In this document: in pieces, positions 4,954 to 64,000 of the stretch
Layout of the letters: each line of letters opens with the position of its first letter
Numbering within the stretch: the first letter of the stretch is position 1
IMG/VR virus record: IMGVR_UViG_3300000062_000003
Coordinates: 5,628 to 69,627 of that record
From: a virus
Direction: 5' to 3' (one strand)
Length of the DNA stretch: 64,000 nt
The notes under the pieces: generated by a model
Told to the model about the DNA's origin: nothing
Seen by the model: the letters and a program-made list of their open reading frames with translations, nothing else
Databases searched by the model: none
Translations under genes and position numbers: made by a program

Positions 4954-5181
4954 TTATAATAGTTTTATGAATCCACCTAATGTTATTGCTAGTAAAATGC
5001 CAAATATTGTGGTCAGGGTTGCTGACTGAGTGAACTCATTTTTTAATCCTGGATTTTCTCCTACACCAAGTTGTTTCTCTCTTTCTATCTCTCTGTATGA
5101 TACATACATCACCAACATATTCGTTAGAAGACATAGCATTAAAATTGCAAGAGCTATTGTTGTTAGTATAAATGTTATCAT
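4954..5181 (-). CDS. Two-TM membrane protein
   Basis: 75 aa with two hydrophobic helices; 4-bp overlap with the upstream gene. Confidence 0.7.
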   Translation of the reverse strand: MITFILTTIALAILMLCLLTNMLVMYVSYREIEREKQLGVGENPGLKNEFTQSATLTTIFGILLAITLGGFIKLL

Positions 5182-5576
5182 TGCTTATCCCAAGTTGCTA
5201 CACTACCCTCAAAGAAATCACTTTTTTTATACCCTTTTATATATTTCCTAAGTGTCTCTGTAGATACTCCAACTTTACGTGTTCCTGGCAATACTTTATT
5301 GCTTGCTAAACTTGTTTTATATACTGAGATTGGTTTACGTGCTGTAACTGGAAATATTTCATTAGCAAATTGACGAGCAGTACTTACTGTTTTAAATTTA
5401 TGCTTTACTTCTCCTTTGTCAGTGGACGACCAATACACTGTTCTTCCATCTACTATACAACAAGTTTCTAATGTTTCTATTAAATCTCCTTCTGCAAACT
5501 CTTGTCCTTTTTCAAGACAAATAACATAGTGGTCAGAGGTCGAATTTCTATATGATGTTATTCTACTATATGACAT
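5178..5576 (-). CDS. Hypothetical protein
   Basis: 132-aa ORF in operon. Confidence 0.7.
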   Translation of the reverse strand: MSYSRITSYRNSTSDHYVICLEKGQEFAEGDLIETLETCCIVDGRTVYWSSTDKGEVKHKFKTVSTARQFANEIFPVTARKPISVYKTSLASNKVLPGTRKVGVSTETLRKYIKGYKKSDFFEGSVATWDKQ

Positions 5577-6193
5577 GGTTTTAAATCTTTTTCTTCTATT
5601 AATGTGTAAGTGAATGAATTTCCATATATTTTACTTGCTTTTTCTGCAAGTTTCATTACATAGTCAAAATCACTTACTTTCTGTGATACTTGACATCCTG
5701 CACTGTTGGCTCCTACCACCTGTGAATTAACTCCTGCCTTGTGGTAGTTGATTCCAAAGTATCCGTATTCAGTAGTTGCTTCGTCCAGGTCAAGTAAATT
5801 ATCTTTGTTTCCGTCTCTGTAAACAATACATCCGTTACCTCGCTGACATAAGGCTCTGTACTTGCCATTGTGAAGGTCTAACTTCCAAATACTTCTATAT
5901 TGTCCTGGCTTTAGAATTGCAACTCCTTTTTTAGCTGATGGATTGTTCATATAATGAAGTCCTGGTACAGTTGTCAGGGGATGGATATATCTCTTCCAGT
6001 CACCCTCATCATCTTTATACTCAACTACTAAAAAGTCGTCAAATGTGTTTTTGTTTTCGTTATTCTTTCGCCCTGCCCTGACCCCGATTATATTAAGATT
6101 ATAACTCCCTCTTTCAAAATAGGAGTATCCTTTACTCTTTAGTATATCTTCAAAATTAGCTTGGGCTACTTTACCTAATAATTTTTCATTCAT
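5558..6193 (-). CDS. YkuD/L,D-transpeptidase-fold peptidoglycan enzyme (putative endolysin)
   Basis: GINYH-x11-SAGCQV catalytic His/Cys signature; LNIIGVR, FDD and PGQY motifs. Confidence 0.75.
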   Translation of the reverse strand: MNEKLLGKVAQANFEDILKSKGYSYFERGSYNLNIIGVRAGRKNNENKNTFDDFLVVEYKDDEGDWKRYIHPLTTVPGLHYMNNPSAKKGVAILKPGQYRSIWKLDLHNGKYRALCQRGNGCIVYRDGNKDNLLDLDEATTEYGYFGINYHKAGVNSQVVGANSAGCQVSQKVSDFDYVMKLAEKASKIYGNSFTYTLIEEKDLKPCHIVE

Positions 6194-6422
6194 ATGCTTC
6201 AGTATCTTTAAAGTATGTATACTTACATTTTTCGCATTTCTTTACTTGTATCTTCCAATATTCGAATCGTTCATCATTGGTATTTATGAAATGCCCACCA
6301 CAATATGGACATCTACCTAATATATTCCACTTGAATCTTCTTATACAGGAAAAAATCTTTTCTACAATTTTATTCATATTTTTGCAATGAGTGAAATGGT
6401 ATGTCAAAACTTTCTTGTCCAC
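6186..6422 (-). CDS. Small zinc-ribbon protein
   Basis: CPYC...CEKC motif. Confidence 0.6.
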   Translation of the reverse strand: MDKKVLTYHFTHCKNMNKIVEKIFSCIRRFKWNILGRCPYCGGHFINTNDERFEYWKIQVKKCEKCKYTYFKDTEAYE

Positions 6423-6765
6423 ACTGTACTAAAAAAGAAACAGATATAGTAGATGTATTTCCACTTTCAGTAAAGCTTAATCCATGCATTATTACCATAC
6501 CTTCCTTTTCTTCACCTTCTAAATTCACATGTACTCTTGCAGGAGAGTTTCTACAAATCAATTCCCTGGCAAATTCATTAAATTCTAGAACATATTCTTC
6601 AGAAGAGCTTCTGGTCAATAATTCTGCCATGGTTAATGCCCCTACCAGATGAGAAGGTATTGCCTCTGTGGGTAAAATATCTCTAAACAAATAGTACTTT
6701 CCTTCTTTTTCCTTAATAGAAAAATACTCATAGATAAGTTTATGCAACAAAGTTATAAAGTTCAT
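6370..6765 (-). CDS. Hypothetical protein
   Basis: 131 aa, downstream of TAATTTTG at 6790-6797. Confidence 0.7.
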   Translation of the reverse strand: MNFITLLHKLIYEYFSIKEKEGKYYLFRDILPTEAIPSHLVGALTMAELLTRSSSEEYVLEFNEFARELICRNSPARVHVNLEGEEKEGMVIMHGLSFTESGNTSTISVSFLVQCGQESFDIPFHSLQKYE

Positions 6766-6789
6766 ATTATAATGTTTTTATTATACATA

Positions 6790-6797
6790 CAAAATTA
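6790..6797 (-). promoter_or_regulatory. -7 promoter element TAATTTTG
   Basis: Exact TAnnTTTG about 25 nt upstream of the operon's first ATG. Confidence 0.65.
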
Positions 6798-6840
6798 CCT
6801 ATTATTGTTCAATATATCAACCTATAATAGTTAATAAATA

Positions 6841-6871
6841 AAAAAAGTTCCAGATATAAAATCTAGAACCT
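6841..6871 (-). terminator. Intrinsic terminator downstream of the tRNA
   Basis: GTTCTAGA/TCTGGAAC hairpin plus T-run on the minus strand. Confidence 0.75.
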
Positions 6872-6950
6872 TGATTAAGTGTGGTCTTTCCTCACAGAGC
6901 ACCTCCCTGTTTTTTTGTCCGAAAAACACCTCTTATTTCGGACATCTTTG

Positions 6951-7022
6951 AGCACTGTGGGAGAGTCGAACTCCCGTATCCACTTTACAAGAGTGGTGTA
7001 ATAACCACTATACGAACAGTGC
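6951..7022 (-). tRNA. tRNA-Thr(UGU)
   Basis: Acceptor GCACTGT/ACAGTGC, anticodon arm CCACT-CTTGTAA-AGTGG, T-arm GGGAG-TTCGACT-CTCCC; CCA not encoded. Confidence 0.92.
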
Positions 7023-7030
7023 CTTCCTAT

Positions 7031-7174
7031 TTACCTATTGGCAAATGTTTTATCTTTGAATTTAGAAGCTACAGCTTCATTAACCTCAAACTTACGTTTA
7101 CCTTTAGCACATATTCCTTCGCGAGTACCAAAGATATTTATAGGTAATGTTGGTTTCATTTTGTTTTTCTTCAT
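7031..7174 (-). CDS. Small basic hypothetical protein (47 aa)
   Basis: Manual translation MKKNKMKPTLPINIFGTREGICAKGKRKF...; fills the gap between a CDS and the tRNA; below the ORF-track cutoff. Confidence 0.5.
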   Translation of the reverse strand: MKKNKMKPTLPINIFGTREGICAKGKRKFEVNEAVASKFKDKTFANR

Positions 7175-7186
7175 AGTAGTATTGGA

Positions 7187-7642
7187 TTAAGGTTTTGGAA
7201 TTAAATATCTTAAAGCTGTAGTATCATATTTATATGCTTTACCTGTTTCATATCTTTCCACTCCACCTAGTTTATCTGCCCAATTCTCTGGGTATACAGA
7301 GTAGTAACTATGTTGTAGAGAAAACCAATCTCTAATAAGTAAGTGAAGAATAGATGGAAGACCTACTAAAGGAAGATATAGCCATCCTAAATATTTACTT
7401 TGCTTGCAGTGACCATACTCATGTAATAAAGTAGGAATGTTACCCTCACTTTTGGAATTTATTATAATACATTTTCCTAAAGAAATGCCTCCAGTCATTT
7501 TAGAACTATACATAACATTCACATCTTTGAATGTGAATAATTTAGCAGTACTGTTATAACAAATGAGGCTAATAATAAACCCTAAAGTGTTCTGTGGTAA
7601 CTGCCATAAAAACAGTAAAGATTGTATAATATATTGTTTCAT
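7187..7642 (-). CDS. Membrane-associated HExxH zinc-metallopeptidase-like protein
   Basis: WQLPQN, GISLG, LLHEYGHCKQ and E.WAD motifs. Confidence 0.7.
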   Translation of the reverse strand: MKQYIIQSLLFLWQLPQNTLGFIISLICYNSTAKLFTFKDVNVMYSSKMTGGISLGKCIIINSKSEGNIPTLLHEYGHCKQSKYLGWLYLPLVGLPSILHLLIRDWFSLQHSYYSVYPENWADKLGGVERYETGKAYKYDTTALRYLIPKP

Positions 7643-7762
7643 TACTCTAAATTTTATTTGTTAAATAAGCACCCCTTTCGTAGTAGAGGTGCTCTGCATA
7701 GACATCTAGGTTTGTGGAGGGTAACGGACTCCTTAAGATGTTCTATATCATTGTTGTATATA

Positions 7763-7770
7763 CAAAGATA
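7763..7770 (-). promoter_or_regulatory. -7 promoter element TATCTTTG
   Basis: Exact TAnnTTTG followed by a structured ~110-nt leader. Confidence 0.6.
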
Positions 7771-7801
7771 CTATGTCTATTCTAAATAAACAACTTTATA
7801 T

Positions 7802-8107
7802 TTACAAAGTATCTGATTTATCTCTATAAACTAGTATATACTCTTCTTTTGTGCGTTTATAAATTATAGAATCTCTACCTTTTAAATCTTCCATTATTAA
7901 TTCTACATCCTTAACTTTACATCCACAATCACTTCTCCATTTGGGATGATTAACAATTACTGAGGTAGTAAGCCTAGTAGCTGTCATTCCATTAACTGGT
8001 TCACCAAATACTTTGATGCCACATGGATATGAATCAACTATTTCTACCTTTGATTCTAGTACTAACTTCTCAGCATTAAAAACTTCAACCTCTTTTTTCA
8101 TACTCAT
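7802..8107 (-). CDS. Hypothetical protein
   Basis: 101-aa ORF. Confidence 0.7.
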   Translation of the reverse strand: MSMKKEVEVFNAEKLVLESKVEIVDSYPCGIKVFGEPVNGMTATRLTTSVIVNHPKWRSDCGCKVKDVELIMEDLKGRDSIIYKRTKEEYILVYRDKSDTL

Positions 8108-8129
8108 GTTTGGGTTAATTTGTTATTAC

Positions 8130-8588
8130 TTAAATATTTAATTTGATGTACTCATACATCTTTGCTTTTAATTTTGTTATATATTGTTCGGTTCCTGCAC
8201 TGGCTGCATGCAACCTAATAGCTCTATCTATATCTTTTGTGGGATTATGATGTGCTTGTACTATATCAAACATCTCCCGTGACCTCTTGGGGTCAGTGCG
8301 GTCATCATACTCAAATTTCTTATACCCAACTAATCTGTTAGCCTCATCAACATAAATATATAATTGTTGAAATAAACCAAGTGCTGAACTGTTTGGATTC
8401 TTTGCAGTAGGGATACCTCTACTTTCCATCCATATTAATGCATTTATAAATGCTTCCCACCTTACTTCTTTACTTTCTACAACCTCTATTTTGTGTGTTA
8501 TTGTAGAAATCGGATGTGCTTTTTGCTCTGTTGATACTGCTGTAGAAGCAAGTAATAGTACAAGTAACATCCCTTTGATAATGTTCAT
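8130..8588 (-). CDS. Secreted lysozyme-like/lytic transglycosylase (SLT-type)
   Basis: Signal peptide, then LIWMESRG (catalytic E-S), NPNSSALGLFQ. Confidence 0.8.
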   Translation of the reverse strand: MNIIKGMLLVLLLASTAVSTEQKAHPISTITHKIEVVESKEVRWEAFINALIWMESRGIPTAKNPNSSALGLFQQLYIYVDEANRLVGYKKFEYDDRTDPKRSREMFDIVQAHHNPTKDIDRAIRLHAASAGTEQYITKLKAKMYEYIKLNI

Positions 8589-8649
8589 AATTTATAATTT
8601 AAAAATTCTCAGGGAGCAAAGTTACTGAAAATTACCAACATAGCAAAAA

Positions 8650-8925
8650 TTATATGTTAAAATAATAGTTAAAATCAGTTAAAATAATATTATATTGTTG
8701 TTTGGATAAGGCTTCAGGTATCGCACTAGTAATTTCTACAGGTACATTTTCCCTAAAATAAGAAAAGTCTTTATATTTTATAGCTAGGTAGAATTGTCGT
8801 TCAAAATCACAGTGGTCAAGGATGTGCTGACCAACTTCTTCAATCAATTCCCTATACAGCTGATGACTTACATATAATAAATCGTCCTGTTCTTTAGCTA
8901 CTACCTTTTGTCGAATACTATCCAT
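8650..8925 (-). CDS. Hypothetical protein
   Basis: 91-aa ORF. Confidence 0.65.
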   Translation of the reverse strand: MDSIRQKVVAKEQDDLLYVSHQLYRELIEEVGQHILDHCDFERQFYLAIKYKDFSYFRENVPVEITSAIPEALSKQQYNIILTDFNYYFNI

Positions 8926-8937
8926 TTAATTTGAATG

Positions 8938-8968
8938 AAAAAATGTGGCAGTATTCCACCACATTTTC
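8938..8968 (-). terminator. Intrinsic terminator after SSB
   Basis: AAAATGTGG/CCACATTTT inverted repeat plus T-run. Confidence 0.7.
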
Positions 8969-9002
8969 AAATTATGTAACTGTGTGTGTTTTCAATTAAT
9001 TA

Positions 9003-9827
9003 TCAAAAAGGCATCTCATCATCTATAGGAAGTTCTTTACCCTTTACTGTCTCCACATTCTTGGGAGCTACAGGTTTACTTTGCTTCTCATTAGATTTTG
9101 GTGAAGGTGCTGTAGAAGCCTTTAGTTCCTTCGCAATACGTTCTAATTGTTGTTCAAGTACAGTGTTCAAATATTCGTCTTGCTCTGAGAAATCCCATAC
9201 CTCTTTGCCAAATTTTTTAACGACTGCTGGTGATGGAATCACTCCATCTGGGTTCTTGTCTGATTTATATAGTATAGCTGACTTAACAAAATCTCTTTCT
9301 GTACCATTCATATAATTGAAGAATGCAGATATGGAATATGTTTTTTGACCATTATCTTTTACATACTCTTTCTTGCTGGTAGATACAGAATACTCAACAC
9401 TTAAATCAATATTTGGAAGTATTGTAATAATTCCTTTAACTATTTGATTTAGTCCAGTACCCTTTGTATTGTATACTGGTAGTGATATGCATTCTTGATT
9501 TCCTTCTGCTGCCTTTATAAAAATACGAAGCATTGGAACTTCTCCAGTATCAAATTTAGCATTACTAATATCAATGCCTGATATTTTACCATACTCAGTA
9601 CAGTTATATTGTTTGTGGTAGTATTTAGCTCCAGATTGAGAGCTTACTATTTCTGCTACTCCTATATCTGAGCCATCATAACCAGGATTCTCAGCCTGAC
9701 GTTGTAGGAAGATTGTTTTGTCAGTATCTCCTGCCTTATGGAACAATTTACCATTACTGTTTATCTTTAGATATAAAGTACTTGTACCTGCTCCATTTCC
9801 TCCATAATTGTTTGCTACTTCTGCCAT
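9003..9827 (-). CDS. ssb: Single-stranded DNA-binding protein (crAss-type)
   Basis: Flexible tail ending in acidic DDEMPF; next to recA; TAATTTTG promoter at 9879-9886. Confidence 0.75.
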   Translation of the reverse strand: MAEVANNYGGNGAGTSTLYLKINSNGKLFHKAGDTDKTIFLQRQAENPGYDGSDIGVAEIVSSQSGAKYYHKQYNCTEYGKISGIDISNAKFDTGEVPMLRIFIKAAEGNQECISLPVYNTKGTGLNQIVKGIITILPNIDLSVEYSVSTSKKEYVKDNGQKTYSISAFFNYMNGTERDFVKSAILYKSDKNPDGVIPSPAVVKKFGKEVWDFSEQDEYLNTVLEQQLERIAKELKASTAPSPKSNEKQSKPVAPKNVETVKGKELPIDDEMPF

Positions 9828-9929
9828 AATTGTTTAATTTTTTTGGTTGTTTAAAATATTATTGTTGTTTACTGAGTACAAAATTACTCATATAGTTTTA
9901 TATACTAAAATCTATTTTCTTAAAATATA

Positions 9930-10469
9930 TTAATTAGCATTATTAGGTTGTATGGCCTTCCTGAAAAACTTACCTAAAATATTGTCATTCACAAAGATAT
10001 CTTTATTTTGCGGCTCTAATACTCCTTCTGAAAATAAGAAAGCAGTTTCTAAAAATGTTAGTTGAGACTTTGTAGATGCTACTCCTAATACACAACGATG
10101 TACAACAGTCACTTTTCCTGATTGTAAGTCGGATATTAGTTGTTTATCTTTGAAACTACCGAAGTATAACTTCCAATCAGTCTCCCTGACCACCTTTTTC
10201 TTCTTACTACCACGTTTATCTTCCATAGCAGCCAATTCTTTCTTCCCTTTATCTACTTTATTTTCAGAAAGAATTTGTTTTCTACCTATATATCGTTTAC
10301 CATTAGAAAATTGTACCTCATATACAAATCCTATTATGTGGTCACGGTCAATGTCTATAATATGTTTTTCCGCATATGCCCTCTTGAAATCTTCTATTGT
10401 TTCTATATAAAAAGCAGTACCATACTTAGCGGTAGCTGACCATCTTGGTAGTCTTGAATTTATTCTCAT
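9930..10469 (-). CDS. GIY-YIG family nuclease
   Basis: GFVY-x8-YIGRKQ and ETDWKLYFGS motifs; 4-bp overlap with the recA stop. Confidence 0.75.
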   Translation of the reverse strand: MRINSRLPRWSATAKYGTAFYIETIEDFKRAYAEKHIIDIDRDHIIGFVYEVQFSNGKRYIGRKQILSENKVDKGKKELAAMEDKRGSKKKKVVRETDWKLYFGSFKDKQLISDLQSGKVTVVHRCVLGVASTKSQLTFLETAFLFSEGVLEPQNKDIFVNDNILGKFFRKAIQPNNAN

Positions 10470-11518
10470 ACAAAATTATCTATTTTCTCAATTAATTCTA
10501 AATTATCTTCTAGTAAATTTAACATAGCAATCTCTCCCTGTGCAAGGGAAACCTGTGTAAGTTCTCCATTTTCGTCCTTATCTAGGAACTTATACCAAGA
10601 ACCAGCTTTAATTATAGCTCCTTTAGTTAGTGCATCTGTAAGTACTTCTGACATAAATTTGAAACCATCCCCATAAAACATTTTCCATATAGTCTTACCT
10701 TTGGGCATTCCATTCTTATTCTTATATACAGTGACCTTTACATCATTTCCTATTTGCTCTTCTCCTGTTTTTATTGCAGTAGTACCAACCATGTCAATAC
10801 GGACAAATGCATAATACTCCTTAGCAGTTCCTCCAGGAGTAGTCGTTGGCGCACCATATCCACCAATATTCTCTCTGAATTGATTAATCATCACTACGGC
10901 TGTTTTAGTGCGATTTACGGCAGTCAATGCTTTTTTAATACCATTAGACATTCCGCTTGCTTTAAGTCCCATACGGTTAGATATCATGCTGTCATTTTGA
11001 AGGTCAGCCTCTACCATCATAGCATCTATAGAATCAATAACTATAAGGTCATAGTTTTGGAAATAAGTATTCTTTGTTTTGTCGGTCAGGGTGAATTTAT
11101 CTAAATCACAGCACGAAGCATATAAAGTAGAATAAATATCATCCATATCTAAAGTACGTGCAACATCTACTTTGCTCATATCAACACCTAATTTAATTGC
11201 ATATTGTACTTTAAAAGCATGCTCTGCGTCAATAAATAGCACTCTGAAGTCAGGGTTGATTTTTTGATTGTATGCAATTGTCTGTAATACTAATGTAGTT
11301 TTTCCACTAGATTGCATTCCATTTAATAATGTAAAATAACCTTTAGCAAATCCACCACCTATTTTATCATTTAACCAACGAGATGGTGTAGGGATAGCTT
11401 CTATTACATCATCCTTAGGAAGTTCATAGATATCAATATTAAGAGAGTTCTTAATTCTTGCTAGAGTACTTGCCTTAGATTCTCCTGGTTTAATTTCTGT
11501 AGTTTGTTTTCTTGCCAT
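10466..11518 (-). CDS. recA: RecA/UvsX-like recombinase
   Basis: Walker A GMQSSGKTT, FIDAEH, IVIDSI, INQFRENIG, TTPGG and KNK motifs; TAAATTTG promoter at 11540-11547. Confidence 0.95.
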   Translation of the reverse strand: MARKQTTEIKPGESKASTLARIKNSLNIDIYELPKDDVIEAIPTPSRWLNDKIGGGFAKGYFTLLNGMQSSGKTTLVLQTIAYNQKINPDFRVLFIDAEHAFKVQYAIKLGVDMSKVDVARTLDMDDIYSTLYASCCDLDKFTLTDKTKNTYFQNYDLIVIDSIDAMMVEADLQNDSMISNRMGLKASGMSNGIKKALTAVNRTKTAVVMINQFRENIGGYGAPTTTPGGTAKEYYAFVRIDMVGTTAIKTGEEQIGNDVKVTVYKNKNGMPKGKTIWKMFYGDGFKFMSEVLTDALTKGAIIKAGSWYKFLDKDENGELTQVSLAQGEIAMLNLLEDNLELIEKIDNFV

Positions 11519-12361
11519 ATATTATCTTTCTATTAAGTACAAATTTAATAATTTATATTTTAATACACAAATAGAAAAAGTTAATTTAATATAAATCAGA
11601 TATATAAGTAAAATTATGTATGTTTAACAATATAAATTTGTATACATTATTATATTGTAGTATCTTTACATCAGTTTAAAGAGATAAACTCTGTTATTTG
11701 ACTATGTGATATACGATTCTAACAGTAATTATTGGTACAGGTATTTTTACCAGACAGATATATAGTGAGTATTTTTCTGAATTGAAGAACTACGAAAAAC
11801 TTCTTTTCACTAAGGGCAACCGATTGCTTATTATATATTTCCGAAGCCAAGTTCAAACACGTTAAAGGGCGTGGGCTTTGTAGACGTTGGATTGTAGGCG
11901 CGCCATTAATTTGGAAACATAGTGCTGAGGTTTCTCCGATACTGTCAAAAATATCCTTAGTATAAGTATTATAATCATACTGTTGTCCTCTCCTTCGTAG
12001 GGAGTTACAGGCAAAAAGGACTTTAGGTAACATTAATCTTCGGATTATAGAGACGGGCAGTTTAAATGATTATGTGTGAAAGCTAAGGATGAAATCGGCG
12101 CAGGTAACTGTTGCTCAACTTTTTGAAGAAAATTCATTAAGGGCTTTTTCCTATGTACATACATTAAGTATTTAAAATAATATATTTTTCAGCCAATTAT
12201 AATATTTAAAGAATATAATATCAGCCAGTTAATAAGTTTAGCAGTTAATTTGTTATACTTATTATTAGTAAAGCAGATAATTTATATATCTTAAATATCT
12301 GGGTATACCCCTAGTGCAAACTAGACGCTTTCGAGGTCAGGGTACTAGCTTTTGAATCTTA

Positions 12362-12475
12362 TAGCTAGAATTTAAACTAGCTAGAATTTAAACTAGCTAG
12401 AATTTAAACTAGCTAGAATTTAAACTAGCTAGAATTTAAACTAGCTAGAATTTAAACTAGCTAGAATTTAAACTA
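12362..12475. repeat. Tandem array 7 x TAGCTAGAATTTAAAC (iteron-like; origin candidate)
   Basis: Seven perfect 16-bp units with no spacers, in the divergent intergenic region; flanked by GGTCAGGG (12335-12342) and CCCTGACC (12481-12488). Confidence 0.9.
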
Positions 12476-12661
12476 CACACCCCTGACCACCTTATTAAAG
12501 TTAAATATAGTTATAAATTAACTAATATCTTATATCCTGTATATTAGTAAGGCTATAGGCAATAACTATGTGAAATTCTTTCCTTTGCATGTTGTGATAA
12601 CAGTATATATCGGATACCGCATGTAGAAACCAATTACAATACAGTCAGGTATTTCGAGATT

Positions 12662-12694
12662 AAGTGTATTAGAGCCATCTAATACACTTTTTTT
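12662..12694 (+). terminator. Intrinsic terminator in the putative origin region
   Basis: AAGTGTATTAGA/TCTAATACACTT hairpin plus T-run. Confidence 0.75.
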
Positions 12695-12759
12695 CGTTTT
12701 ATACCATATGGAAATAGTTAAATTAAGTTAAAATATTTGGAAATGTAGTAATTATGTTG

Positions 12760-12767
12760 TATATTTG
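12760..12767 (+). promoter_or_regulatory. -7 promoter element TATATTTG for the rightward operon
   Basis: Exact TAnnTTTG 4 nt upstream of ATG 12772. Confidence 0.6.
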
Positions 12768-12771
12768 TTGG

Positions 12772-12927
12772 ATGAAGTTTATTCTTAGGTATTTTAAATC
12801 TCTATATTTTAAAAATAGAAAGATAGATAAGAAATGTGATAACTGTGTAAGACAACATACACTACACTGTCCAAATAGTTTCTTCTGTTATGCTACTGAA
12901 GAAAAACCGTTCTTTTTAAGTAAATAA
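12772..12927 (+). CDS. Small Cys/His-rich protein (51 aa), possibly leaderless
   Basis: MKFILRYF...KCDNCVRQHTLHCPNSFFC; manual translation, below the ORF-track cutoff. Confidence 0.55.
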   Translation: MKFILRYFKSLYFKNRKIDKKCDNCVRQHTLHCPNSFFCYATEEKPFFLSK

Positions 12928-12938
12928 AAAAATAAAGT

Positions 12939-14665: not shown

Positions 14666-14671
14666 TATATC

Positions 14672-15142: not shown

Positions 15143-15145
15143 TAT

Positions 15146-15586: not shown

Positions 15587-15595
15587 CCACTGACC

Positions 15596-17716: not shown

Positions 17717-17799
17717 TACACAACCACAAAAAACTATCCTGAACTACTTACAATAAGTCATCTACCAAATATATATTTTATTATACATATATTTGGTAG

Positions 17800-17807: not shown

Positions 17808-17831
17808 TATATAAATTTGCAAATTTAAATT

Positions 17832-54503: not shown

Positions 54504-54510
54504 TTTAAGT

Positions 54511-57500
54511 ATGGCAGAACAAGTAGCTCCAGCACAAGAATTTTTAGCACCTACTGCACCAGCTTCTACTCTACAGCAGTTTATGGCTCCCACAGCACCT
54601 GTAAGTACATCTCCTGAAGTGCAGTACCCTACTGAGCTGAATCTGAATCAGAGTGCAATGTTTCCTCAGATAGGACTTAATACACAAACTTCTGTAGGAG
54701 GATTAGGCTTTACCAACCAACCCATGACTCCTGAGTATAAATCATTATCTAAGGCACAAGTACCCTTTATTGCTCAAGATATAAGAAGAAAAGAAAATAC
54801 TGGACTCACTTATCTTGACGACCAAGCCATAAGAGATAATATTTGGGGACAAATAGCACCTCCCAGACGTTCTATGGTGGAGTATACTGTTAATCAAGAT
54901 GAGGTATTCGGACGATTATCAGATGGAACATTAATAGCTAAAGTTCCAAATTATATAGGTGGAACTGACAATCAAGACAGATTAGCAAAAGGACAGAGCA
55001 CAGCAGAGAGATGGGTAAATGGTATAGGTAAACTTGTAGGTAATACATTTACTAATTTATTAGGTGGAACTATTGGAGTAGCAACAGGGATTACTAATGC
55101 TTTTCAAGAAGGTAGACTATCTGCTATCTATGATGATTCATTTAACAACTGGTTAGATGATTTAAATACCAGAATGGACTATCAGTTGCCTAACTATAAG
55201 TCAATTGAAGAACGTCAGATGGGTCTACTTAGCTCACTAACTACAGCTAATTTCTGGGCTAATGATGTTTTAAAAGGACTTTCTTTCTTGACAGGTGCGG
55301 TATTATCAGAAGCAGTCTGGGGCACTCTCACAGGAGGTGCAGCAACCCCTATAGTAGCAGCTAGAGCAGCAATGCGTGCTAAAAATATATTTTCTACTAC
55401 ACACAGGTTGGGAGATGCAGCAAGAGCTGGAAAGAATGTACTACAAGCATATAATAGGGCATTAATGGCTAATAAAACTGTAGGGGCAGCAAATCAACTT
55501 AGGTTCTTTGTTACTTCTTCATTTTATGAGTCAGGGGTGGAGGCTCGACATATGTTCAATGAGGCGATGGATAATTATATGGATACCTTCCAACAAGCAC
55601 ATGGTCGTACACCAAATCAAGAAGAACTTGCAGAGTTTGTAGATAAAGCACGGGATACTTCTAATGCTGTATTTGGAGCTAATGTAGCCATAGTAGGTAG
55701 TTCAAATTTCTTTCAATTAGGGTCGTATTTTGGACTCAAACCATCCCTGACCCCGAAACTAAAAAACTTTGTAGCCAGAAATGTATTTGGACATAAAGTA
55801 ACAACAAAAGCAGGTAATACATTAGTACAAACTGCTACTAGAGGAAATAGATTACAACGTACATTAGAAACAGGGGTTAATGTATTAAAAAGACCTGTAG
55901 TAGAAGGAGTATGGGAAGAGGGGTCACAGGGAGTTGTAAGTAATGCTGGAAAAGCATGGTTAGATAGTAGATTTAATCCAAAAGCTACAAAAGAAAATAT
56001 AGACCTATCAGAGGCTCTAGCACAAGGATTTTCACAAGCATATGGTACAACAGAAGGTCAGAAAGAAATAGCCTTAGGATTCATTATAGGTATCTTAGGT
56101 GGAGGCATGGCTAAAGGTGAACAAGGCAAGAACATGGTCTTCGGATTTAATGAAGCATCTCAGCAACTATCTGCCGAACAAGCACGGGCTAATGTCTTTA
56201 ATACAGCTGCTGATAATGTGATAAAACAAGGCCTGCCAGCTCATGCACAGAAGCTGCTACGACTAAACCAAGCCTCTACATCACTAGAGGAGGCAAATGA
56301 GTATGCTGAACAAGGGAAGTTAACAGAGGCAGACATTAAACTGTCAGAATCTAATTTTACACAATTACTTGCTGCTACTGAACAAGACAAACTGGATGAG
56401 GTACAACATAACATGAATACTGTTATTGATAGTGCTGACAGGTCTATGTTTGGTAGCGAATTTTCTGAAATTTCGGACGAGGAGTTTGCGTCTTATAAAA
56501 GTGATATGAAAAGCATGTATGCTAGAGATGTTGCAAATTATAAAAAGGCTCTTGAGTATGCACAGGCACTTTCTCCTACTTTTACAGCAGCTGGAAAAAT
56601 AAAAGAAGTAGATAATCTAACTTCAGTGTTAGCTCTTAATATCTTTCAAGGGATGGATAGACAAGGTGCTACACGAGAATTAACAACAGCTATTGGCACC
56701 TTATTGGGTGACACTGGAATTACTAACTCAATGAACACTTTACAAGGTGTATCTGATAGGTCTAGACAGTTAGGTCAGGATTATAATTATAGACAGCAAC
56801 AGTTAGCACAGTTGCAAGATAAGTTGGTTGCTACCCAACAAAAACTAGCTGCTATAGTACCTGGGAACACAGTTTCACAAGAAGCTGCACAAGAACGTAT
56901 AGCAGAGGAAGACAAACTGCGTGGTGATATTGCACAGGTTATAGCTGAAATAACTATAGTACAAAATGAAATAGATGCATTAGGCCAACAGGCTAGTACA
57001 GTTGATGATAGTATGCAGCTTCTCACACATCAGTTTGGACTAACTAATGATGGTACATATCGTGGACATATTTCTCCTATAACAATTGCACAAGTTGCTG
57101 AAGCTATTACTAAAGGAGAGCAATTGCAAAATCTCCTTAACTCAATGCGTCGAGACCCTAATGTTACAGATTCTCAAGTACAAACAGTAGAGTTTCTGTT
57201 ACAGGAGTATCAAAAGAATGTAGCTGCCACAGATAGATTTTTATCTACAGCTGCTAGGTTATCTGATAGACGAATGACTATGGCAGCCCCAGCAGTGGGA
57301 CAATTTAAATGGCTTCCAAATATCGCAGGCAAGTTCATTGAAGCAGCACATAGAAGTAATGAAACAGATGCACCGATTCCCTCAGCATTAGCAGAAAAGA
57401 TAGAACAGGAACATCCTAATTTGACTGAAGAACAGAAGTTTTCTTTAGCTACTCTATTAGCTATGCAGCAACCAACAGCAGAGACTGCAAATAGTACTCC

Positions 57501-59799
57501 TGTAGCTGTACCTCGTACTAATGATATTTCTGACCAGCAATGGGAAGAGGTGATGAATGGCAATATATCAGATGCATTAATGGGACAAGTGAGAGATAAA
57601 CTATTAATGAAACAACCTCTGACACCAAGGGAAATGGAAGTATTCAGAAGACGTTCAGAGATATGGCAACAAGTATATGATGAACGATTAAGAAGAGGTA
57701 GACAACTACCTAAACCTATAGCATCAGATGCAAGCCCTATAGTACAGGTAGAACACAGTATAGAGACTGCTTTTGCAATGTCACCAACTTTACAAGCACG
57801 CAGTAAAGGAGAATTGAAACCTCCTACTCCTGCTGAGATAGCTGAGTTTAAAAGGCTGGATAAACAAATACGTAAGAAATCATTTAACAGACCTACCTTG
57901 TCAGCTAAACAGCAAGCAAAAGTAAGACGACATGCTGAGTTATGGGAAAAAATTGACCAATATGGCATGTTAGTAGGTACTATACTTCCTGGAGGAGTAA
58001 CTTTAGCAGAGGCCTATGCTAATTTAGCAATGTTAGAGGAGCATAATCAACCTTCGACTACTGCGGTTGTTTCAGAAGTAGATGTTAATTTAATGTTGGA
58101 AACACAGCCTTCTTTGGAAGCAGAGACTAGAGGAGATACAAATATGCATTCTTTAGTGTATGATAAAGTTACTGTAGGTTCATCTGGTAAAGCTGAATGG
58201 GTACCTGGACAAGTGGTTGAAAATACAGTAACACTACAAGGACTTACTCTAAATGGATTTCTTCAATATTTTGTAGGAAATACAGTAGTAATGAGGTTAG
58301 GCCAAGCTCTAGAAGTGGTAGACCCACAGAGTTATTCTCCTAACCCAGGGGATACCTTCACTGTACAACTAGAAAATGGCAGTAAAATAGCAGTACATAT
58401 TTCAGAGAGAGGTACTTTAGCACTTGATATAAATGATGCAACAACTATTGAGGCAAATTCAATTCTTCAGTTTGCGTATCTAGGGAACTTTTCATCTAAT
58501 TATAAATTTTTGTTAACTCAAGATTATCAAGTAGTTCAATCAGATTACAATGGGGAGCTAGGAGTTGATTTGAATGTGGAGCATATTTACAATTTGGAAG
58601 CAGGTACACCCGTGACCCCGAAAGTTAATCTAGATTTACCATACAATCAACAACTACTAGAGGAATATAATAATAGTGATAAAGGAGAAACAGCTTATAA
58701 GAGATTACGAGATAATCTAGTAATAGAAGTATATGATGCACAAGGAAACTGGGTGTCACTGATGAAAGCAATGCATTCCGACTCTGCTAACACACCATCT
58801 TTCTATGCACTTAAAAAGTTACGTACTGAGATGACTAATAAACTCACAGCAGTGCAGCCTATATCCAGATTAGATGGACATCTTGAGGTACAACCAATTA
58901 CAGTAGGTACAGCAGAGGGAAGTGAGGTAGCAGAGGATACAGAATATCAAATATTTGACAATAGAACTGGGTTACCACATTCAAGCACTACTTATTCGAC
59001 TATTGAGGAGGCTGAAACAGCTGTAGCACAGACTATTAAGGAGGATGTTCAATCAATGAGGGATTCTGCTATAAATTCAGACAAGCAATTAATAGTGGAA
59101 GATGTTTTGCCAGGTGCGCCTTATATTAATGTAGTGGATGGTGCAGTTCAATTTACTGCTATCCCAGACAGTCCAAATGCAAGGGGTAAGATAGCTGATG
59201 TAGGATACATAGAAGATGGGAAGTTGGTCTTATTAGGAAATACCAGCAATGTCCAAATGTACCCTTGGACATCTCATATTACACAGGATACAAAAGGCCT
59301 TTATAAAGGACGCAGGGTGCCTGTAGTAGCTTTAAGAATAGGTAATAAGATTTACGCTTATCAGGCGCAATTATCCACTCAGGAGATAAGTATTGTACCT
59401 GAGATAGATATAGTGATTGCTAATGAGAGCCTGTCCTCATTTGAGAAATTACAATCTATAAATCAAATTATAGCAGATGCAGGACTATCTACAGGACAGT
59501 ATGGATTCTCAGCATTTGATTTAAATCAAGATGCATATGATAAGAAGACTGCTGCAATAGAACAGGCAACAATTGCTACTGATATAAGAACAATCATCAC
59601 CAACCCTGACTCCACATTAGATTCAGTATTAAACCAAATGGCACTTGATGTAAACCTAGAGCAGGATATCGCACATTCACCAAAACTAAAATTACGATTA
59701 GACTCACCTGGAACAGAGGTAGAAAACATCTCTCAGGTAGTAAATATATCAGTAGAAGACCAAGCTGAAGTAAGTAATGAAATTATCACACCTTGTTAA
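54511..59799 (+). CDS. Giant cargo/ejection protein with TM-like Gly/Ala-rich segments
   Basis: 1762 aa; QST.ERW.NG..K, ESGVEAR and EG..EEG.QG motifs. Confidence 0.8.
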   Translation: MAEQVAPAQEFLAPTAPASTLQQFMAPTAPVSTSPEVQYPTELNLNQSAMFPQIGLNTQTSVGGLGFTNQPMTPEYKSLSKAQVPFIAQDIRRKENTGLTYLDDQAIRDNIWGQIAPPRRSMVEYTVNQDEVFGRLSDGTLIAKVPNYIGGTDNQDRLAKGQSTAERWVNGIGKLVGNTFTNLLGGTIGVATGITNAFQEGRLSAIYDDSFNNWLDDLNTRMDYQLPNYKSIEERQMGLLSSLTTANFWANDVLKGLSFLTGAVLSEAVWGTLTGGAATPIVAARAAMRAKNIFSTTHRLGDAARAGKNVLQAYNRALMANKTVGAANQLRFFVTSSFYESGVEARHMFNEAMDNYMDTFQQAHGRTPNQEELAEFVDKARDTSNAVFGANVAIVGSSNFFQLGSYFGLKPSLTPKLKNFVARNVFGHKVTTKAGNTLVQTATRGNRLQRTLETGVNVLKRPVVEGVWEEGSQGVVSNAGKAWLDSRFNPKATKENIDLSEALAQGFSQAYGTTEGQKEIALGFIIGILGGGMAKGEQGKNMVFGFNEASQQLSAEQARANVFNTAADNVIKQGLPAHAQKLLRLNQASTSLEEANEYAEQGKLTEADIKLSESNFTQLLAATEQDKLDEVQHNMNTVIDSADRSMFGSEFSEISDEEFASYKSDMKSMYARDVANYKKALEYAQALSPTFTAAGKIKEVDNLTSVLALNIFQGMDRQGATRELTTAIGTLLGDTGITNSMNTLQGVSDRSRQLGQDYNYRQQQLAQLQDKLVATQQKLAAIVPGNTVSQEAAQERIAEEDKLRGDIAQVIAEITIVQNEIDALGQQASTVDDSMQLLTHQFGLTNDGTYRGHISPITIAQVAEAITKGEQLQNLLNSMRRDPNVTDSQVQTVEFLLQEYQKNVAATDRFLSTAARLSDRRMTMAAPAVGQFKWLPNIAGKFIEAAHRSNETDAPIPSALAEKIEQEHPNLTEEQKFSLATLLAMQQPTAETANSTPVAVPRTNDISDQQWEEVMNGNISDALMGQVRDKLLMKQPLTPREMEVFRRRSEIWQQVYDERLRRGRQLPKPIASDASPIVQVEHSIETAFAMSPTLQARSKGELKPPTPAEIAEFKRLDKQIRKKSFNRPTLSAKQQAKVRRHAELWEKIDQYGMLVGTILPGGVTLAEAYANLAMLEEHNQPSTTAVVSEVDVNLMLETQPSLEAETRGDTNMHSLVYDKVTVGSSGKAEWVPGQVVENTVTLQGLTLNGFLQYFVGNTVVMRLGQALEVVDPQSYSPNPGDTFTVQLENGSKIAVHISERGTLALDINDATTIEANSILQFAYLGNFSSNYKFLLTQDYQVVQSDYNGELGVDLNVEHIYNLEAGTPVTPKVNLDLPYNQQLLEEYNNSDKGETAYKRLRDNLVIEVYDAQGNWVSLMKAMHSDSANTPSFYALKKLRTEMTNKLTAVQPISRLDGHLEVQPITVGTAEGSEVAEDTEYQIFDNRTGLPHSSTTYSTIEEAETAVAQTIKEDVQSMRDSAINSDKQLIVEDVLPGAPYINVVDGAVQFTAIPDSPNARGKIADVGYIEDGKLVLLGNTSNVQMYPWTSHITQDTKGLYKGRRVPVVALRIGNKIYAYQAQLSTQEISIVPEIDIVIANESLSSFEKLQSINQIIADAGLSTGQYGFSAFDLNQDAYDKKTAAIEQATIATDIRTIITNPDSTLDSVLNQMALDVNLEQDIAHSPKLKLRLDSPGTEVENISQVVNISVEDQAEVSNEIITPC

Positions 59800-59805
59800 A
59801 TAGAT

Positions 59806-62145
59806 ATGGGACTAGCATGTAGAATAATAAGAAAAGAAGATGGTGGAATCTCTGTATTAGATAGATATGGAGAGACATCTGCTTTATATAGGGATTTAGT
59901 CAGCACACTCACAGTACAACAGCAGAATCAAGCTACTATACCTATTTCTAGTGTAGTATCCGCAGAAGAAAGGGCTGTGTACGACCAAGCTGTTTTCAGA
60001 GGAACTTTACTAATTGCTCCTAATGGAGAATTGTCTAATTTATCCAAGTCACAGTGGTTATTAACAAGAACTCCATCTTTTATAGGTAGTTATGGAAACT
60101 GGTCAGCAGGAGAGACTAATTTGGATTTAGATGCTAATGGTGAACCCATCTTTAATAACAATAGTGTCCCTGATGGTGTTGGATTAATAGAACAAGAAAC
60201 AAGAGACTCTTTGGAGTCTTTAGTTAGTTTTTCTGGAGTAGAAAACCAAGCCCTGTTGCTTTGGGGGTTTTCTAACTTGCCAGAATTTCAACAGAATTTT
60301 GGAACTGAAGAAGAGCCTGGTATAGAGCAGTTTTTAGATTTTTACTATAATTTTGGTAAAGGAGAGGTGCGGACAGCACAAGACAGGTCTAATTTGATGG
60401 CAGCAGCAAGTGCAACAGATTTAACTACTGCTCAATTGATGGCTTCACAGAGAAGCAACGACCCTGACCCTATAATTAAGCATGAATTAAGCTCTTCTAC
60501 AGAGTTTAATGTTTCCCCTATAGAGAAGTCTAGTATAGTAGAGAAACTTCAATATGCGAGCTCTCAGGCATCTATTTTGGGTACTACAGAGCAGCATACT
60601 GAATCGGATATTTTTGAACTACTAGATGCTACATATGCAATGAGGGTGTCAGGGGTGGAAGATATTAGAAAACTAGCTACAGAGCTTCCAGAAGCACTTG
60701 CAGAGAGTATTTTATCAAATGCTTCACTTCAACAAGAATTACTTGATTACTATCAGTATCTAGAGCCAGTAACACATTTTACAGTAGTAGAAGGACAACT
60801 TATACCTGTACAAGATACTCATGTACGTACTACATTAGATAATACTATTATACAAGGGGCAAACATGGGGGATGTAAGCACTACTTTAAATACATTAACT
60901 TCAATAGATGAAACTACTTGGGAGCGCTCATTGCCTTTAGTATATAGATTATTACAATCTGTGGAAGAGCAAACTATTGCAGCGAATATAGATACTATAG
61001 GCCTATCTAATAAAGCAATGACAAAACCATTTGTGGAAACACAGGTATATTTACAACAAGTAGCAGTGTTAGTAGAATTGGTACAGGAGGGAGTAGCAAC
61101 ACAGGATGAGGTGACTCAGTTTGTAGATAGTCATATAAGTTATTTTGATATTCAGGAACCTGTTGTTACTTCATTAGAGTCGAATCAAGAGGCTGCTCCA
61201 TTAGCTATTATAGAGGGACAAGTAGACGAGAGTAGTTTATTTTCTGATAACCTATTGGTGAGAGTACGTGATAATGTGTATACATCTGTAGATGCTGATA
61301 ATATATTTACTGAGTTGTTGCAAATTGGTAACCCAACAATACCTGCTTACTTGTATGAAGGAGTAATGCTAGGAAGTTCTTTATTAGAAAATAGGTTAAA
61401 GGATTTCTTCACCCGTGTGGATTATGGAGTATATTTCACTGATAGGGATACACAGGCTAAGTATAATATGTCTAGGTATATGTTTTCTCTTGAGCAACAA
61501 GTCCCTGACCTCGCCAATGAATCATCCAAGTTAAGTGTTATCAATAATGATATAGATTTCGACTATCTTACTACTTCATTTGTTCCAGAGTTTATGAATT
61601 ATATATTAGAGGAAAAGTTAAATAATTCTCAGATATATAATAGATTATTAAAGAATTTTTATGTTAGTGATATAGGTTTAGAGGTCAGGGGGGATATATC
61701 AGCAATGCAACAAGAACTCTCTAATTGGATTTCTGAGATACCATTAGCCAAAGACTTATTTGATTATGCTGCCATTAGTGATAATCAAAACCTGTTAAAT
61801 ATTATGGAGTTTGTACCAGAAGCAGTAATGAGTCCACAAAGTTTAGTTGAGATTGCATCTTTAAATCCTGAAGCAATTCTTCCATTAACTGGAGTACCTA
61901 CAAATCCACTGTTAAATGGAAATATGCAGTTACCTAGTTATGCAGGTGAGGTTGTAAAAGTACGAGGTATATTACATAAAATAGTTGATAGAGTAAATAA
62001 CATATACTCACCAGATTTACAAGCACCAGAAATTCTTACAATAGCCAATCCTTTAACATCAGAGTCAGGAGTAGAGGCGCAAACCCAAACCATGACCACT
62101 GCACAACAAACAGAAATGAATCAAAGAATAGACGAATGTAGTTAA
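59806..62145 (+). CDS. Large virion/polyvalent-type protein
   Basis: 779 aa; APNG..SNL...QW...RTPSF...GNW motif; N-terminus similar to the protein at 62682. Confidence 0.75.
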   Translation: MGLACRIIRKEDGGISVLDRYGETSALYRDLVSTLTVQQQNQATIPISSVVSAEERAVYDQAVFRGTLLIAPNGELSNLSKSQWLLTRTPSFIGSYGNWSAGETNLDLDANGEPIFNNNSVPDGVGLIEQETRDSLESLVSFSGVENQALLLWGFSNLPEFQQNFGTEEEPGIEQFLDFYYNFGKGEVRTAQDRSNLMAAASATDLTTAQLMASQRSNDPDPIIKHELSSSTEFNVSPIEKSSIVEKLQYASSQASILGTTEQHTESDIFELLDATYAMRVSGVEDIRKLATELPEALAESILSNASLQQELLDYYQYLEPVTHFTVVEGQLIPVQDTHVRTTLDNTIIQGANMGDVSTTLNTLTSIDETTWERSLPLVYRLLQSVEEQTIAANIDTIGLSNKAMTKPFVETQVYLQQVAVLVELVQEGVATQDEVTQFVDSHISYFDIQEPVVTSLESNQEAAPLAIIEGQVDESSLFSDNLLVRVRDNVYTSVDADNIFTELLQIGNPTIPAYLYEGVMLGSSLLENRLKDFFTRVDYGVYFTDRDTQAKYNMSRYMFSLEQQVPDLANESSKLSVINNDIDFDYLTTSFVPEFMNYILEEKLNNSQIYNRLLKNFYVSDIGLEVRGDISAMQQELSNWISEIPLAKDLFDYAAISDNQNLLNIMEFVPEAVMSPQSLVEIASLNPEAILPLTGVPTNPLLNGNMQLPSYAGEVVKVRGILHKIVDRVNNIYSPDLQAPEILTIANPLTSESGVEAQTQTMTTAQQTEMNQRIDECS

Positions 62146-62233
62146 CCTGTTTTAACAATATTATTTAGTTAAATTATATAATTGTATGTACCTTTGCATT
62201 TTAGTATCATAGGTACAGTAAAATAAGTTACAG

Positions 62234-62692
62234 ATGGCAATAAAGGAAGAAGAATGCAAACTACGATACTTTTATGGGGAAAGCTATATAGCAGTTAATA
62301 AGACTAAAGAGTATGAGCTTGACCCATGTAGTGGAGGTGGTACACATAAGGTTGAATATGAGGTTACTAAGTATCATCCAGATATTTTTGGATTAATGCA
62401 TCTCCAAGGATTTGGAATGCGTAAAGTAACAGTAAATAAGATGCGTATGACAGTACCTCCAACTCTACGAGAAGACAGAGGTGAAGTAGGGCTTTACTAT
62501 AGAGTTCGTCAAGGTCTTATTTTTGCCTTTGATAAATCACCAGATGTTAACTATAAAATGATTAAATTAAAATCTATCAGACCAAGGGATGTTAGAATTT
62601 TGTTTAGACGAGTAGATGGTACTCCAATTACCTCAGAAGAGTTAGAATTAGTAAAAACTTCCAAATATATATTTATAAGAAATGGCTTGTAA
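62234..62692 (+). CDS. Hypothetical protein with its own promoter, between giant virion genes
   Basis: 152 aa; TACCTTTG at 62189-62196; overlaps the next gene by 11 nt. Confidence 0.7.
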   Translation: MAIKEEECKLRYFYGESYIAVNKTKEYELDPCSGGGTHKVEYEVTKYHPDIFGLMHLQGFGMRKVTVNKMRMTVPPTLREDRGEVGLYYRVRQGLIFAFDKSPDVNYKMIKLKSIRPRDVRILFRRVDGTPITSEELELVKTSKYIFIRNGL

Positions 62693-64000
62693 TATTGAGC
62701 GTAAACGAGGACAGGCAGTAAATGTTAAGTTAGAAAATGGACAAGACTCTGTTTTGTTTAATAAACTTGCTACATCTCCTCTTATTTCAAATACAGAAGA
62801 TGCTTTGGTGGAGTATGAGAAAATAGCAATCAAAGCCCCTGACAACTTACTAGAAGGATATCCTACAAACTTATTGGAAAGTACAGGAGAACCGAAGATG
62901 TTCTACAAATCAGGAGACTACATCTCTACCTCACTCAATCAAGTACTGAACAATAAACAAAGCAATGTAATTGAAATAGGGGTAGTATATCCAAATGGAA
63001 GAGAAGTCCTTAATACTGACAGAAGAGTCAACATAAAATTACCAATGTCCCATATAGTTACTATGGAAACCAGCTTAGGTATAGAGGGGGCTATAGTAAA
63101 CTCTGATAACTTTGTTACATACAGACAGTACGAGCTACCAAATCAGGAATCTGGTATGGGTGCAGTACTTGATGGTGTTAAAAACTCTCTGATAAGTGAT
63201 ACTAAACGTATTACAAATGAGGGACAATCTGTGTTTGTAAGTACTGGAGTGGATATTACTGAAAGGCGTTCCAATAAACAGTCAGTAATGAGTGATGTTA
63301 GAATCAAGGCTGATGTAATGAACTTAGAGAGTACAGAAACAGATTCCTTCTCATTTACAGTAGATTCTCGTTCAGAGTTCCGTACCGACAACCAAACTCT
63401 GACCCAGGAAGAGTTCGAACAAAAACTATTACAGAATGATGCTGAAGTCTTAGGGGATAGTAATATCTTTGGTAATCTACAGAAATTAACAGATAATAAA
63501 GGATTGGAAGAACAGCCTTTTAGACTTACATCAGAAAATACTTCCCCTGTTTTATCAAAGGAACTGAGAGAAAAGTTAGAGAGAGCACTACTAGACTTAG
63601 GTGTTAGTAGAGAGTCCCTAGAGGCTTACAAGGAGAGACATAGAGCAAAATATGGTAAGGAAGTAGATATTGCTGGATTTGCAGACTTAGCAAATAGAAC
63701 TATTGGGTTTCTAGATGGAGACACTACTACCTTTACAGAAGAGGTCTCTCACTTTCTGGTAGAGGCTATGCAAGGCACCCCTGAGTTTGCAGCAGCAATG
63801 CTTGAAGTGATATCTACACAGGAATATGCAGAGGCGCGCGCGCAGTATAAAACAGTGTATGAGGCAATGTATGAAGGTGTACAGTTGGAAGAAGCATATC
63901 GGAAGGAGGCACTGGGTAAAGTACTTCAGAGGTATCTACTTGACCAATCTTATACTCCTACTGCAACTGCTACATCTCAATCAACAAGTATATGGCAACA
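62682..64000 (+). CDS. Giant virion protein with zincin-like motif, truncated by window edge
   Basis: Manual translation MACNIERKRGQAVNVKLENGQDSVLF... is open to the window end; TFTEEVSHFLVE...RKEALGK resembles the zincin-like domains of giant crAss-like proteins. Confidence 0.8.
   Translation, partial: MACNIERKRGQAVNVKLENGQDSVLFNKLATSPLISNTEDALVEYEKIAIKAPDNLLEGYPTNLLESTGEPKMFYKSGDYISTSLNQVLNNKQSNVIEIGVVYPNGREVLNTDRRVNIKLPMSHIVTMETSLGIEGAIVNSDNFVTYRQYELPNQESGMGAVLDGVKNSLISDTKRITNEGQSVFVSTGVDITERRSNKQSVMSDVRIKADVMNLESTETDSFSFTVDSRSEFRTDNQTLTQEEFEQKLLQNDAEVLGDSNIFGNLQKLTDNKGLEEQPFRLTSENTSPVLSKELREKLERALLDLGVSRESLEAYKERHRAKYGKEVDIAGFADLANRTIGFLDGDTTTFTEEVSHFLVEAMQGTPEFAAAMLEVISTQEYAEARAQYKTVYEAMYEGVQLEEAYRKEALGKVLQRYLLDQSYTPTATATSQSTSIWQ

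Follow-up and report, generated by a model that had tools for sequence, protein, structure and literature searches.

A selected, strand-polar DNA word written into the synonymous codons of a crAss-like phage, with a Chi-like signal as its tentative role

The window analyzed here is a stretch of 64,000 nucleotides (nt), positions 5628-69627 of the 110,764-bp IMG/VR virus record IMGVR_UViG_3300000062_000003, and its subject is the heptamer CCCTGAC (GTCAGGG on the other strand), which an earlier note on this DNA had described as strand-polarized and present in about 40 copies. CCCTGAC/GTCAGGG is a selected, strand-polar DNA recognition word that is maintained by synonymous-codon choice. The record has a guanine-plus-cytosine (GC) content of 34.9% and a CheckV completeness of 73%, and no terminal repeat was found in its 110,764 bp. 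Gene direction is leftward between about 17.7 kb and the left end and rightward between 18.5 kb and the right end, with transcription of every block pointing away from the divergence region. GC skew and AT skew both flip where the gene directions diverge. The features on which the argument rests are as follows, in window coordinates.

5012..12342, minus strand: left arm of the word within the window, five copies on the minus (coding) strand and two on the plus strand.
10466..11518, minus strand: RecA/UvsX-like recombinase gene (phrog_97, E 4e-48; PF00154 in an orthologue), with two sense copies of the word (11085, 11249).
12335..12342, minus strand: the last left-arm copy, GGTCAGGG, 20 bp left of the array.
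12362..12475, no strand: a perfect 7.1 x 16-bp tandem array with the unit TAGCTAGAATTTAAAC, in the AT-rich gene-divergence region.
12481..12499, plus strand: CCCTGACCACCTTATTAAA, 6 bp right of the array, the only intergenic copy kept in place in a relative (there CCCTGACCACCTAATTAAA).
12481..62843, plus strand: right arm of the word, 29 copies on the plus (coding) strand and four on the minus strand, in structural and cargo genes.
15596..17716, plus strand: large terminase (TerL) gene, the landmark used for finding relatives.

A recount of the window returned all 40 coordinates and strands of the earlier note exactly, and the excess is real, given that 100 dinucleotide shuffles of the window yielded only 3.1 +/- 1.7 copies with a maximum of 8. 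The whole record holds 82 copies, about one per 1.35 kb, and under a maximal-order Markov model the word is its top-enriched 7-mer. Copies inside open reading frames (ORFs) number 55 in sense and 15 in antisense, compared with 2.4 and 2.6 under synonymous-codon shuffles that keep each protein and its codon usage gene by gene. Expressed over codon expectation, the enrichment is 28-fold in sense and 7.8-fold in antisense (15 versus 1.9), a ratio of about 4:1. Even a dicodon-preserving null, which by construction absorbs much of the signal, predicts just 13.4 copies against the 55 observed in sense, and the enrichment therefore does not disappear under the shuffle that the earlier note had proposed as a way to refute it.

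The claim that the word occupies two reading frames also holds, with 27 copies as xCC-CTG-ACN and 28 as CCT-GAC, while the third frame is never used because a TGA stop would arise in it. Among [S/T/P/A]-Leu-Thr contexts, 27 of 60 are written xCC-CTG-ACN (0.4 expected), and 28 of 84 x-Pro-Asp contexts are written xxC-CCT-GAC (1.6 expected). The codons that spell the word are rare ones: CTG makes up 7% of Leu codons and ACC 11% of Thr codons. All seven positions are sharp, single-base variants being near expectation, and G is excluded from both flanks (3/82 and 1/82), which gives an effective word HCCCTGACH with C preferred after it. Beyond this there is no longer conserved context around CCCTGAC, although the surroundings are G-poor and C/A-rich, and the copies have no positional preference inside genes. 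The word is short, strict, non-palindromic and orientation-biased, as a Chi-type word is. A peptide-level repeat was ruled out as the cause by the synonymous and dicodon nulls, the two frames and the intergenic copies. A literature search for the word CCCTGAC itself returned nothing relevant.

One detail of the earlier note needs correction. It had contrasted one DTLTS repeat that carries the word with three that lack it, but the tail-fibre gene in the window has only two exact DTLTS repeats:

Window 31977..31991, plus strand: DTLTS written GAC ACC CTG ACC TCT, with the word.
Window 31614-31628: paralogous DTLTS written GAT ACA CTT ACC TCT, without the word.

A third DTLTS copy, with the word, lies outside the window. 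A tail-fibre segment of about 100 nt that encodes GGSTTTVLDTLTSSSATDALSANQG, word included (window 31,9xx), is duplicated at the start of the gene for a 1554-aa protein (record 89.8 kb).

The peptide contexts that could carry the word are nearly equal in number in the two orientations (144 sense and 135 antisense), but 38% of the former and 11% of the latter are used. The polarity is therefore real, and a bias in opportunity is ruled out as its cause. Record-wide, the copies divide into 13 minus and 4 plus on the left and 53 plus and 12 minus on the right (Fisher p = 2.5e-5), and the curve of cumulative orientation bottoms out at the copy immediately left of the 16-bp array, with one flip only. 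The earlier note placed this flip at a putative origin. As a description of a flip at the array the statement stands, but its origin link is unproven, because genes diverge there too, and because one and the same strand serves as coding strand, as the lagging-strand template if an origin is put at the divergence, and as the 3'-ended strand at the contig ends. Throughout the genome, orientation goes with the coding strand and no independent link to replication was found, which, as a description, is the outcome that the earlier note had set against its own view. The array itself could be an origin, a promoter/operator region or a packaging site. Opposite-strand ORFs were tried as a tie-breaker between polarity by gene and polarity by block, and proved unsupported or spurious, one of them overlying a plus-strand tail-fibre-like repeat.

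The replication module shows less polarity (about 20:8) than the structural module (33:5), even though the genes of both are co-oriented. The overall spacing of copies is Poisson-like, while that of the major-orientation copies of the right arm is slightly more even than random (coefficient of variation 0.74, p = 0.014). In the plus-strand block, 9 of the 12 antisense copies lie within 320 bp of a sense copy (p ~0.004) and 11 of 12 within 500 bp (p ~0.002), a pairing that is a lead only, as its threshold was set after the data had been seen and the effect is not significant in the other three blocks.

Support for selection on the word as such also comes from a relative, a contig from another sample whose TerL is 76% identical (59.4 kb stitched, 41.9% GC). 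It carries CCCTGAC 43 times, or 0.72 per kb, a density equal to that of the phage under study, and uses 39% of its sense and 8% of its antisense opportunities. Only 6 of 34 sites in orthologous genes are in place, and codons differ even at conserved amino acids. Equal density with so few sites in place indicates that selection acts on number and orientation and not on position. A further contig of that sample, which probably represents the replication module of the relative, carries 8 plus and 4 minus copies of the word, so that the relative repeats the contrast between replication and structural modules (8:4 versus 31:4). The intergenic copy that both phages keep, just right of the AT-rich divergence region, has the form CCCTGACCACCT(T/A)ATTAAA. 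As selection acts at synonymous sites, the word lies in two reading frames, both strands are enriched and sites turn over at constant density, the earlier view of the word as a selected cis-signal is borne out at the level of DNA.

The relative also has a longer polar word, CCTGACCACC, which overlaps CCCTGAC and occurs 24 times in 59 kb, compared with 0.05 expected. It is much weaker in the phage under study, and in the left arm of the relative it is unflipped (CCTGACC, 9 plus and 5 minus).

Beyond this pair, the relatives compared have either no copies or nothing comparable to the word: this applies to sister phages with 49% identity in the terminase or 45-51% in the primase-like protein and to the first 50 kb of phage csAssE-Sib, and all 80 IMG/VR loci found with a terminase profile (35-38% identity) lack the word. 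It is thus confined to one small lineage. An IMG/VR search with the single TerL protein gave no further relatives, a genome-contig search with the primase protein gave no match, and the conserved 19-mer had no IMG/VR match and five chance matches in metagenomes.

The phage is assigned to a distant crAss-like group and probably has a Bacteroidota host, as judged from four lines of sequence evidence: the large terminase and portal match PHROGs of the crAss-like group; the closest named terminase relatives, at about 34% identity, are csAssE-Sib and the Cellulophaga phages phi17:2 and phi4:1; CrAss ring-protein domains are present in orthologues from a relative; and a 2270-aa protein has a BACON domain. 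In addition to the RecA-like recombinase, the phage encodes a family A DNA polymerase, a DnaB-like helicase, an exonuclease, a DHH phosphoesterase, an A1-like "DNA transfer" protein (phrog_1745), and several HNH and GIY-YIG endonucleases, one of which has a borderline Mom-like domain. Many terminase homologues of this group are 900-1200 aa long and contain intein/LAGLIDADG domains (PF14890, PF14528). The left 7 kb of the record holds all six copies of a 16-bp, parS-like palindrome:

Window 978-993 and 1395-1410; record ~1727, 3235, 3929 and 5513: TGTTCCACGTGGAACA.

Most of these copies are intergenic, with an AT-rich stretch after each, and none is found in the sequenced part of the relative; they could serve early genes as an operator or promoter element, or act together as ParB sites.

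What reads the word is a matter of weighing. By analogy with published Chi-rich phages, a Chi-like signal offers the best fit and is the most likely mechanism, to which we would assign a probability of about 0.35. An AddAB/RecBCD-type helicase-nuclease would enter at a double-strand end, move along the phage DNA, read the word on one strand and stop degrading; the 3' tail might then be passed to a RecA-type recombinase, either that of the host or the RecA/UvsX-like protein of the phage. The outcome would be protection of the linear DNA and a start of recombination-dependent replication. We infer the end-entering nature of the reader, the strand that it would read and the place of the DNA ends: if the ends are at the contig termini, the proper strand on both arms would be 5'-CCCTGAC-3', approached from its 3' side. 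The search for a phage gene that tracks the word found none, the primase-like and A1-like (phrog_1745) genes being present in word-free sisters as well, which fits a reader determined by the host.

The contig ends bear on this scheme. At the right end a copy in the proper orientation is found 52 bp in, and at the left end 251 bp in. The record of a sister phage, an independent assembly, starts at the homologous place, with TerL 21,961 bp from the end as compared with 21,223 bp here, and is of similar length (111,699 versus 110,764 bp). These data suggest that the contigs end at true and fixed termini of the genome, placed at the point of gene convergence, but another assembly of the sister phage bridges the junction, which keeps the termini conjectural. 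The right end is also marked by a hairpin:

Record 110,690-110,720, about 50 bp from the record end: AGTCAGGGGAGG-GATGAG-CCTCCCTGACT, closing the rightward gene block, with the word in both arms.

Several observations weigh against a Chi-like role. Although copies are densest in the first 5 kb of the record, their clustering at the ends is not significant (scan statistic p = 0.29). The strand read would be C-rich if the ends are at the contig termini, and all Chi words known to us are G-rich on the strand read. The phage has its own RecA-like recombinase, whereas recombination genes are as a rule missing from Chi-rich phages of the LLS type. The two carriers of the word differ by 7% in GC (35% versus 42%), and their hosts may therefore differ. 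Because a single strand plays all three parts, as coding strand, lagging-strand template and end-proximal 3' strand, the geometry favors a Chi-like signal over none of its rivals. A scan of Bacteroidota genomes, first 5 and then 401, found CCCTGACC nowhere near the 0.42 per kb of the phage in any of these 406, a small sample from many thousands of species that tips the balance neither for nor against host mimicry. The leads from that scan were rejected: in the top one (G340) the GC content is 64% and the excess is a codon effect; in G172 a replichore-scale run on one strand was an artefact and a 400-kb sample had only a 2-fold excess; in G383 short runs follow operons. G172 (C1:1-400000, 41.6% GC) has strand-biased words of its own, ACCCCTGC(A) with 67 copies (22/45) and ACCTATAC with 68 (17/51); these have no connection with the phage word and may represent repeat elements or architecture signals. 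We know of no Chi described in Bacteroidota, and the Chi recognized by the AddAB of Bacteroides (B. fragilis) is unknown (PMC2887965).

An RNA-level explanation, in which the word would be read on the non-template strand or in mRNA, with an elongation factor, an antitermination factor, an RNA-binding protein or an RNase as possible readers, seems unlikely, even though it accounts directly for an orientation that follows the coding strand in each gene block. Four intergenic copies in sense, 30-45 nt upstream of start codons, the G-poor, C/A-rich context of the word and the hairpin that closes the plus-strand block with the word in both arms are all in keeping with it, and so is the finding that host RNA polymerase transcribes the crAss-like phage phi14:2's middle and late genes (10.1101/2020.03.07.982082). 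However, a signal in RNA does not predict the 7.8-fold enrichment of antisense copies, and this enrichment, together with the weaker polarity of the co-oriented replication module, speaks somewhat against a purely RNA-level signal. The lack of positional preference within genes points in the same direction. To our knowledge, no transcription signal recurs every 1-2 kb inside ORFs.

We similarly doubt that the word is a priming signal, a candidate already raised in the earlier note. According to this idea, a phage Zn-ribbon/TOPRIM primase and the DnaB-like helicase would start primers at 5'-CC-CTG-AC-3' on the lagging-strand template, from an origin in the divergence region. The likely primase of the phage, identified by its domains, is encoded by a gene that a crude ORF call had missed:

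Record 100,246-101,235, outside the window: Zn_ribbon_16 + DUF6371 (TOPRIM-like) gene (E 1e-38).

This gene shares about 60 nt with the end of the exonuclease gene that lies upstream, and it holds one CCCTGAC copy in each orientation. The candidate gains from the presence of this primase-like gene, the helicase and the family A polymerase, and from the CTG within the word, CTG being the template triplet of E. coli DnaG. The flip at an AT-rich region, where an inverted pair of words brackets the perfect array of seven 16-bp units, the slightly even 1.8-kb spacing in the major orientation, and the rarity by chance of a GC-rich site in 35% GC DNA, which would give a reason for selection, also agree with priming. 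It is weakened by the primase orthologues (45-51% identity) in zero-copy relatives, so that the word does not co-occur with the primase lineage, although a changed specificity is possible, and by a control with phage T7, whose primase pentamers are neither enriched nor polar (GGGTC, 39 on the top and 55 on the bottom strand versus 38 and 32 expected). Moreover, a strict 7-mer with flank rules would be unprecedented for a primase, as the primase sites known to us are 3-5 nt long; priming leaves the enrichment in the opposite orientation unexplained; and the assignment to the lagging-strand template depends on an origin that is itself inferred.

A broader form of the idea has an equally small chance of being right, namely that the reader is a phage-encoded machine whose specificity arose in this lineage, for example a 7-nt specificity acquired by the Zn-ribbon/TOPRIM primase or by some other conserved protein of replication or recombination.

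It is highly improbable that the word guides a double-strand DNA translocase, in the manner of FtsK-orienting polar sequences (KOPS) or SpoIIIE recognition sequences (SRS), by directing a motor of the phage or an FtsK-type motor of the host. A polar and bipolar arrangement agrees with such a role, and the KOPS resemblance pointed out in the earlier note is real, as 47 of the 82 copies (57%) read GGTCAGGG on the G-rich strand, a 7/8 match to the KOPS consensus GGGNAGGG, but it lacks supporting context: no FtsK/HerA-type gene is present among the phage proteins scanned, the skew of 80% is below that of typical KOPS (test level ~85%), the G-rich form is opposite to the GC skew of the genome, and we know of no KOPS role in any phage. 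It is just as improbable that a phage enzyme nicks one strand or modifies a base at the word, in the way that the genomes of T5, tf and phiKMV are nicked, since such sites need no 20-fold enrichment and the HNH/Mom-like gene, rejected as the reader on this ground, is absent from the same place in the word-sharing relative, however well a strictly defined, strand-specific word and the HNH/GIY-YIG endonucleases, one with its borderline Mom-like domain, would suit it.

The five candidates do not share out the whole of the probability, part of which we assign to none of them. The significance of the word depends on its reader. If it is the Chi of a host AddAB/RecBCD, no earlier Chi candidate would have been linked to a crAss-like phage, or possibly to a host among the Bacteroidota. 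If the reader is encoded by the phage, about 40% of the eligible codon contexts would have been rewritten into a bipolar track leading outwards from the divergence region; the phage would have recoded a large share of its synonymous sites for one enzyme, in a self-contained, co-evolving system of enzyme and genome word as opposed to mimicry of a host Chi. Either way, the use of 38% of eligible contexts, in two phages and with little positional conservation, measures with unusual clarity how strongly a DNA word can be selected within genes, and the word could also mark hosts for host prediction.

Among known systems, the stoperators of cluster A mycobacteriophages, which are 13-14 bp repressor sites, mostly intergenic, in temperate phages, resemble the present case in having an asymmetric word with tens of genome-wide copies in one orientation relative to transcription; they differ from it because the word here has 7 bp and lies inside ORFs in two frames. 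KOPS and SRS, the signals of FtsK and SpoIIIE, share with it a polar G-rich octamer ending in AGGG (the 7/8 match), but they are chromosomal, serve septal translocases, have a skew above 90% and are co-oriented with GC skew. The T7 gp4 primase sites (GGGTC, TGGTC and GTGTC) are likewise strand-specific and, as the priming candidate would have it for CCCTGAC, lie on the lagging-strand template and belong to a Zn-ribbon/TOPRIM primase with a DnaB-family helicase, and the complement of the longer word of the relative contains TGGTC. The T7 words are, however, 5-mers at chance frequency and not polar, whereas CCCTGAC is a 7-mer at 20-30 times chance.

Bacterial Chi sequences, such as GCTGGTGG in E. 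coli, AGCGG in B. subtilis, GCGCGTG in L. lactis and GAAGCGG in S. aureus, are closer in kind. Like them, the word falls within 5-8 nt, is strict, is enriched on both strands with a skew of about 3:1 to 4:1, and is spaced at kilobase intervals, while the bacterial Chi is G-rich on the strand read and, with ends at the contig termini, it would be the C-rich strand that is read here. Closest of all are Chi-rich phages (PMC12315714; earlier, Bobay et al. 2013, PMC3784561). The lambdoid phage LLS has 23 Chi, one per 1.86 kb, in a 20:3 ratio in favor of the active orientation, where 0.85 are expected per genome; Pseudomonas phage MD8 has Chi at 32:0, P1 has 50, and phages of the LLS type mostly lack recombination genes (PMC12315714). 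In LLS, MD8 and P1 the word is the experimentally known Chi of the host, its orientation is uniform relative to cos and its copies are concentrated near one end; here the arrangement is bipolar with a flip at the gene divergence, spread over 110 kb of a crAss-like genome that encodes a RecA-like protein. What the phage has in common with LLS, MD8 and P1 is a short non-palindromic word, its density, its orientation bias, a minor orientation that is still above chance, and a patchy occurrence among relatives.

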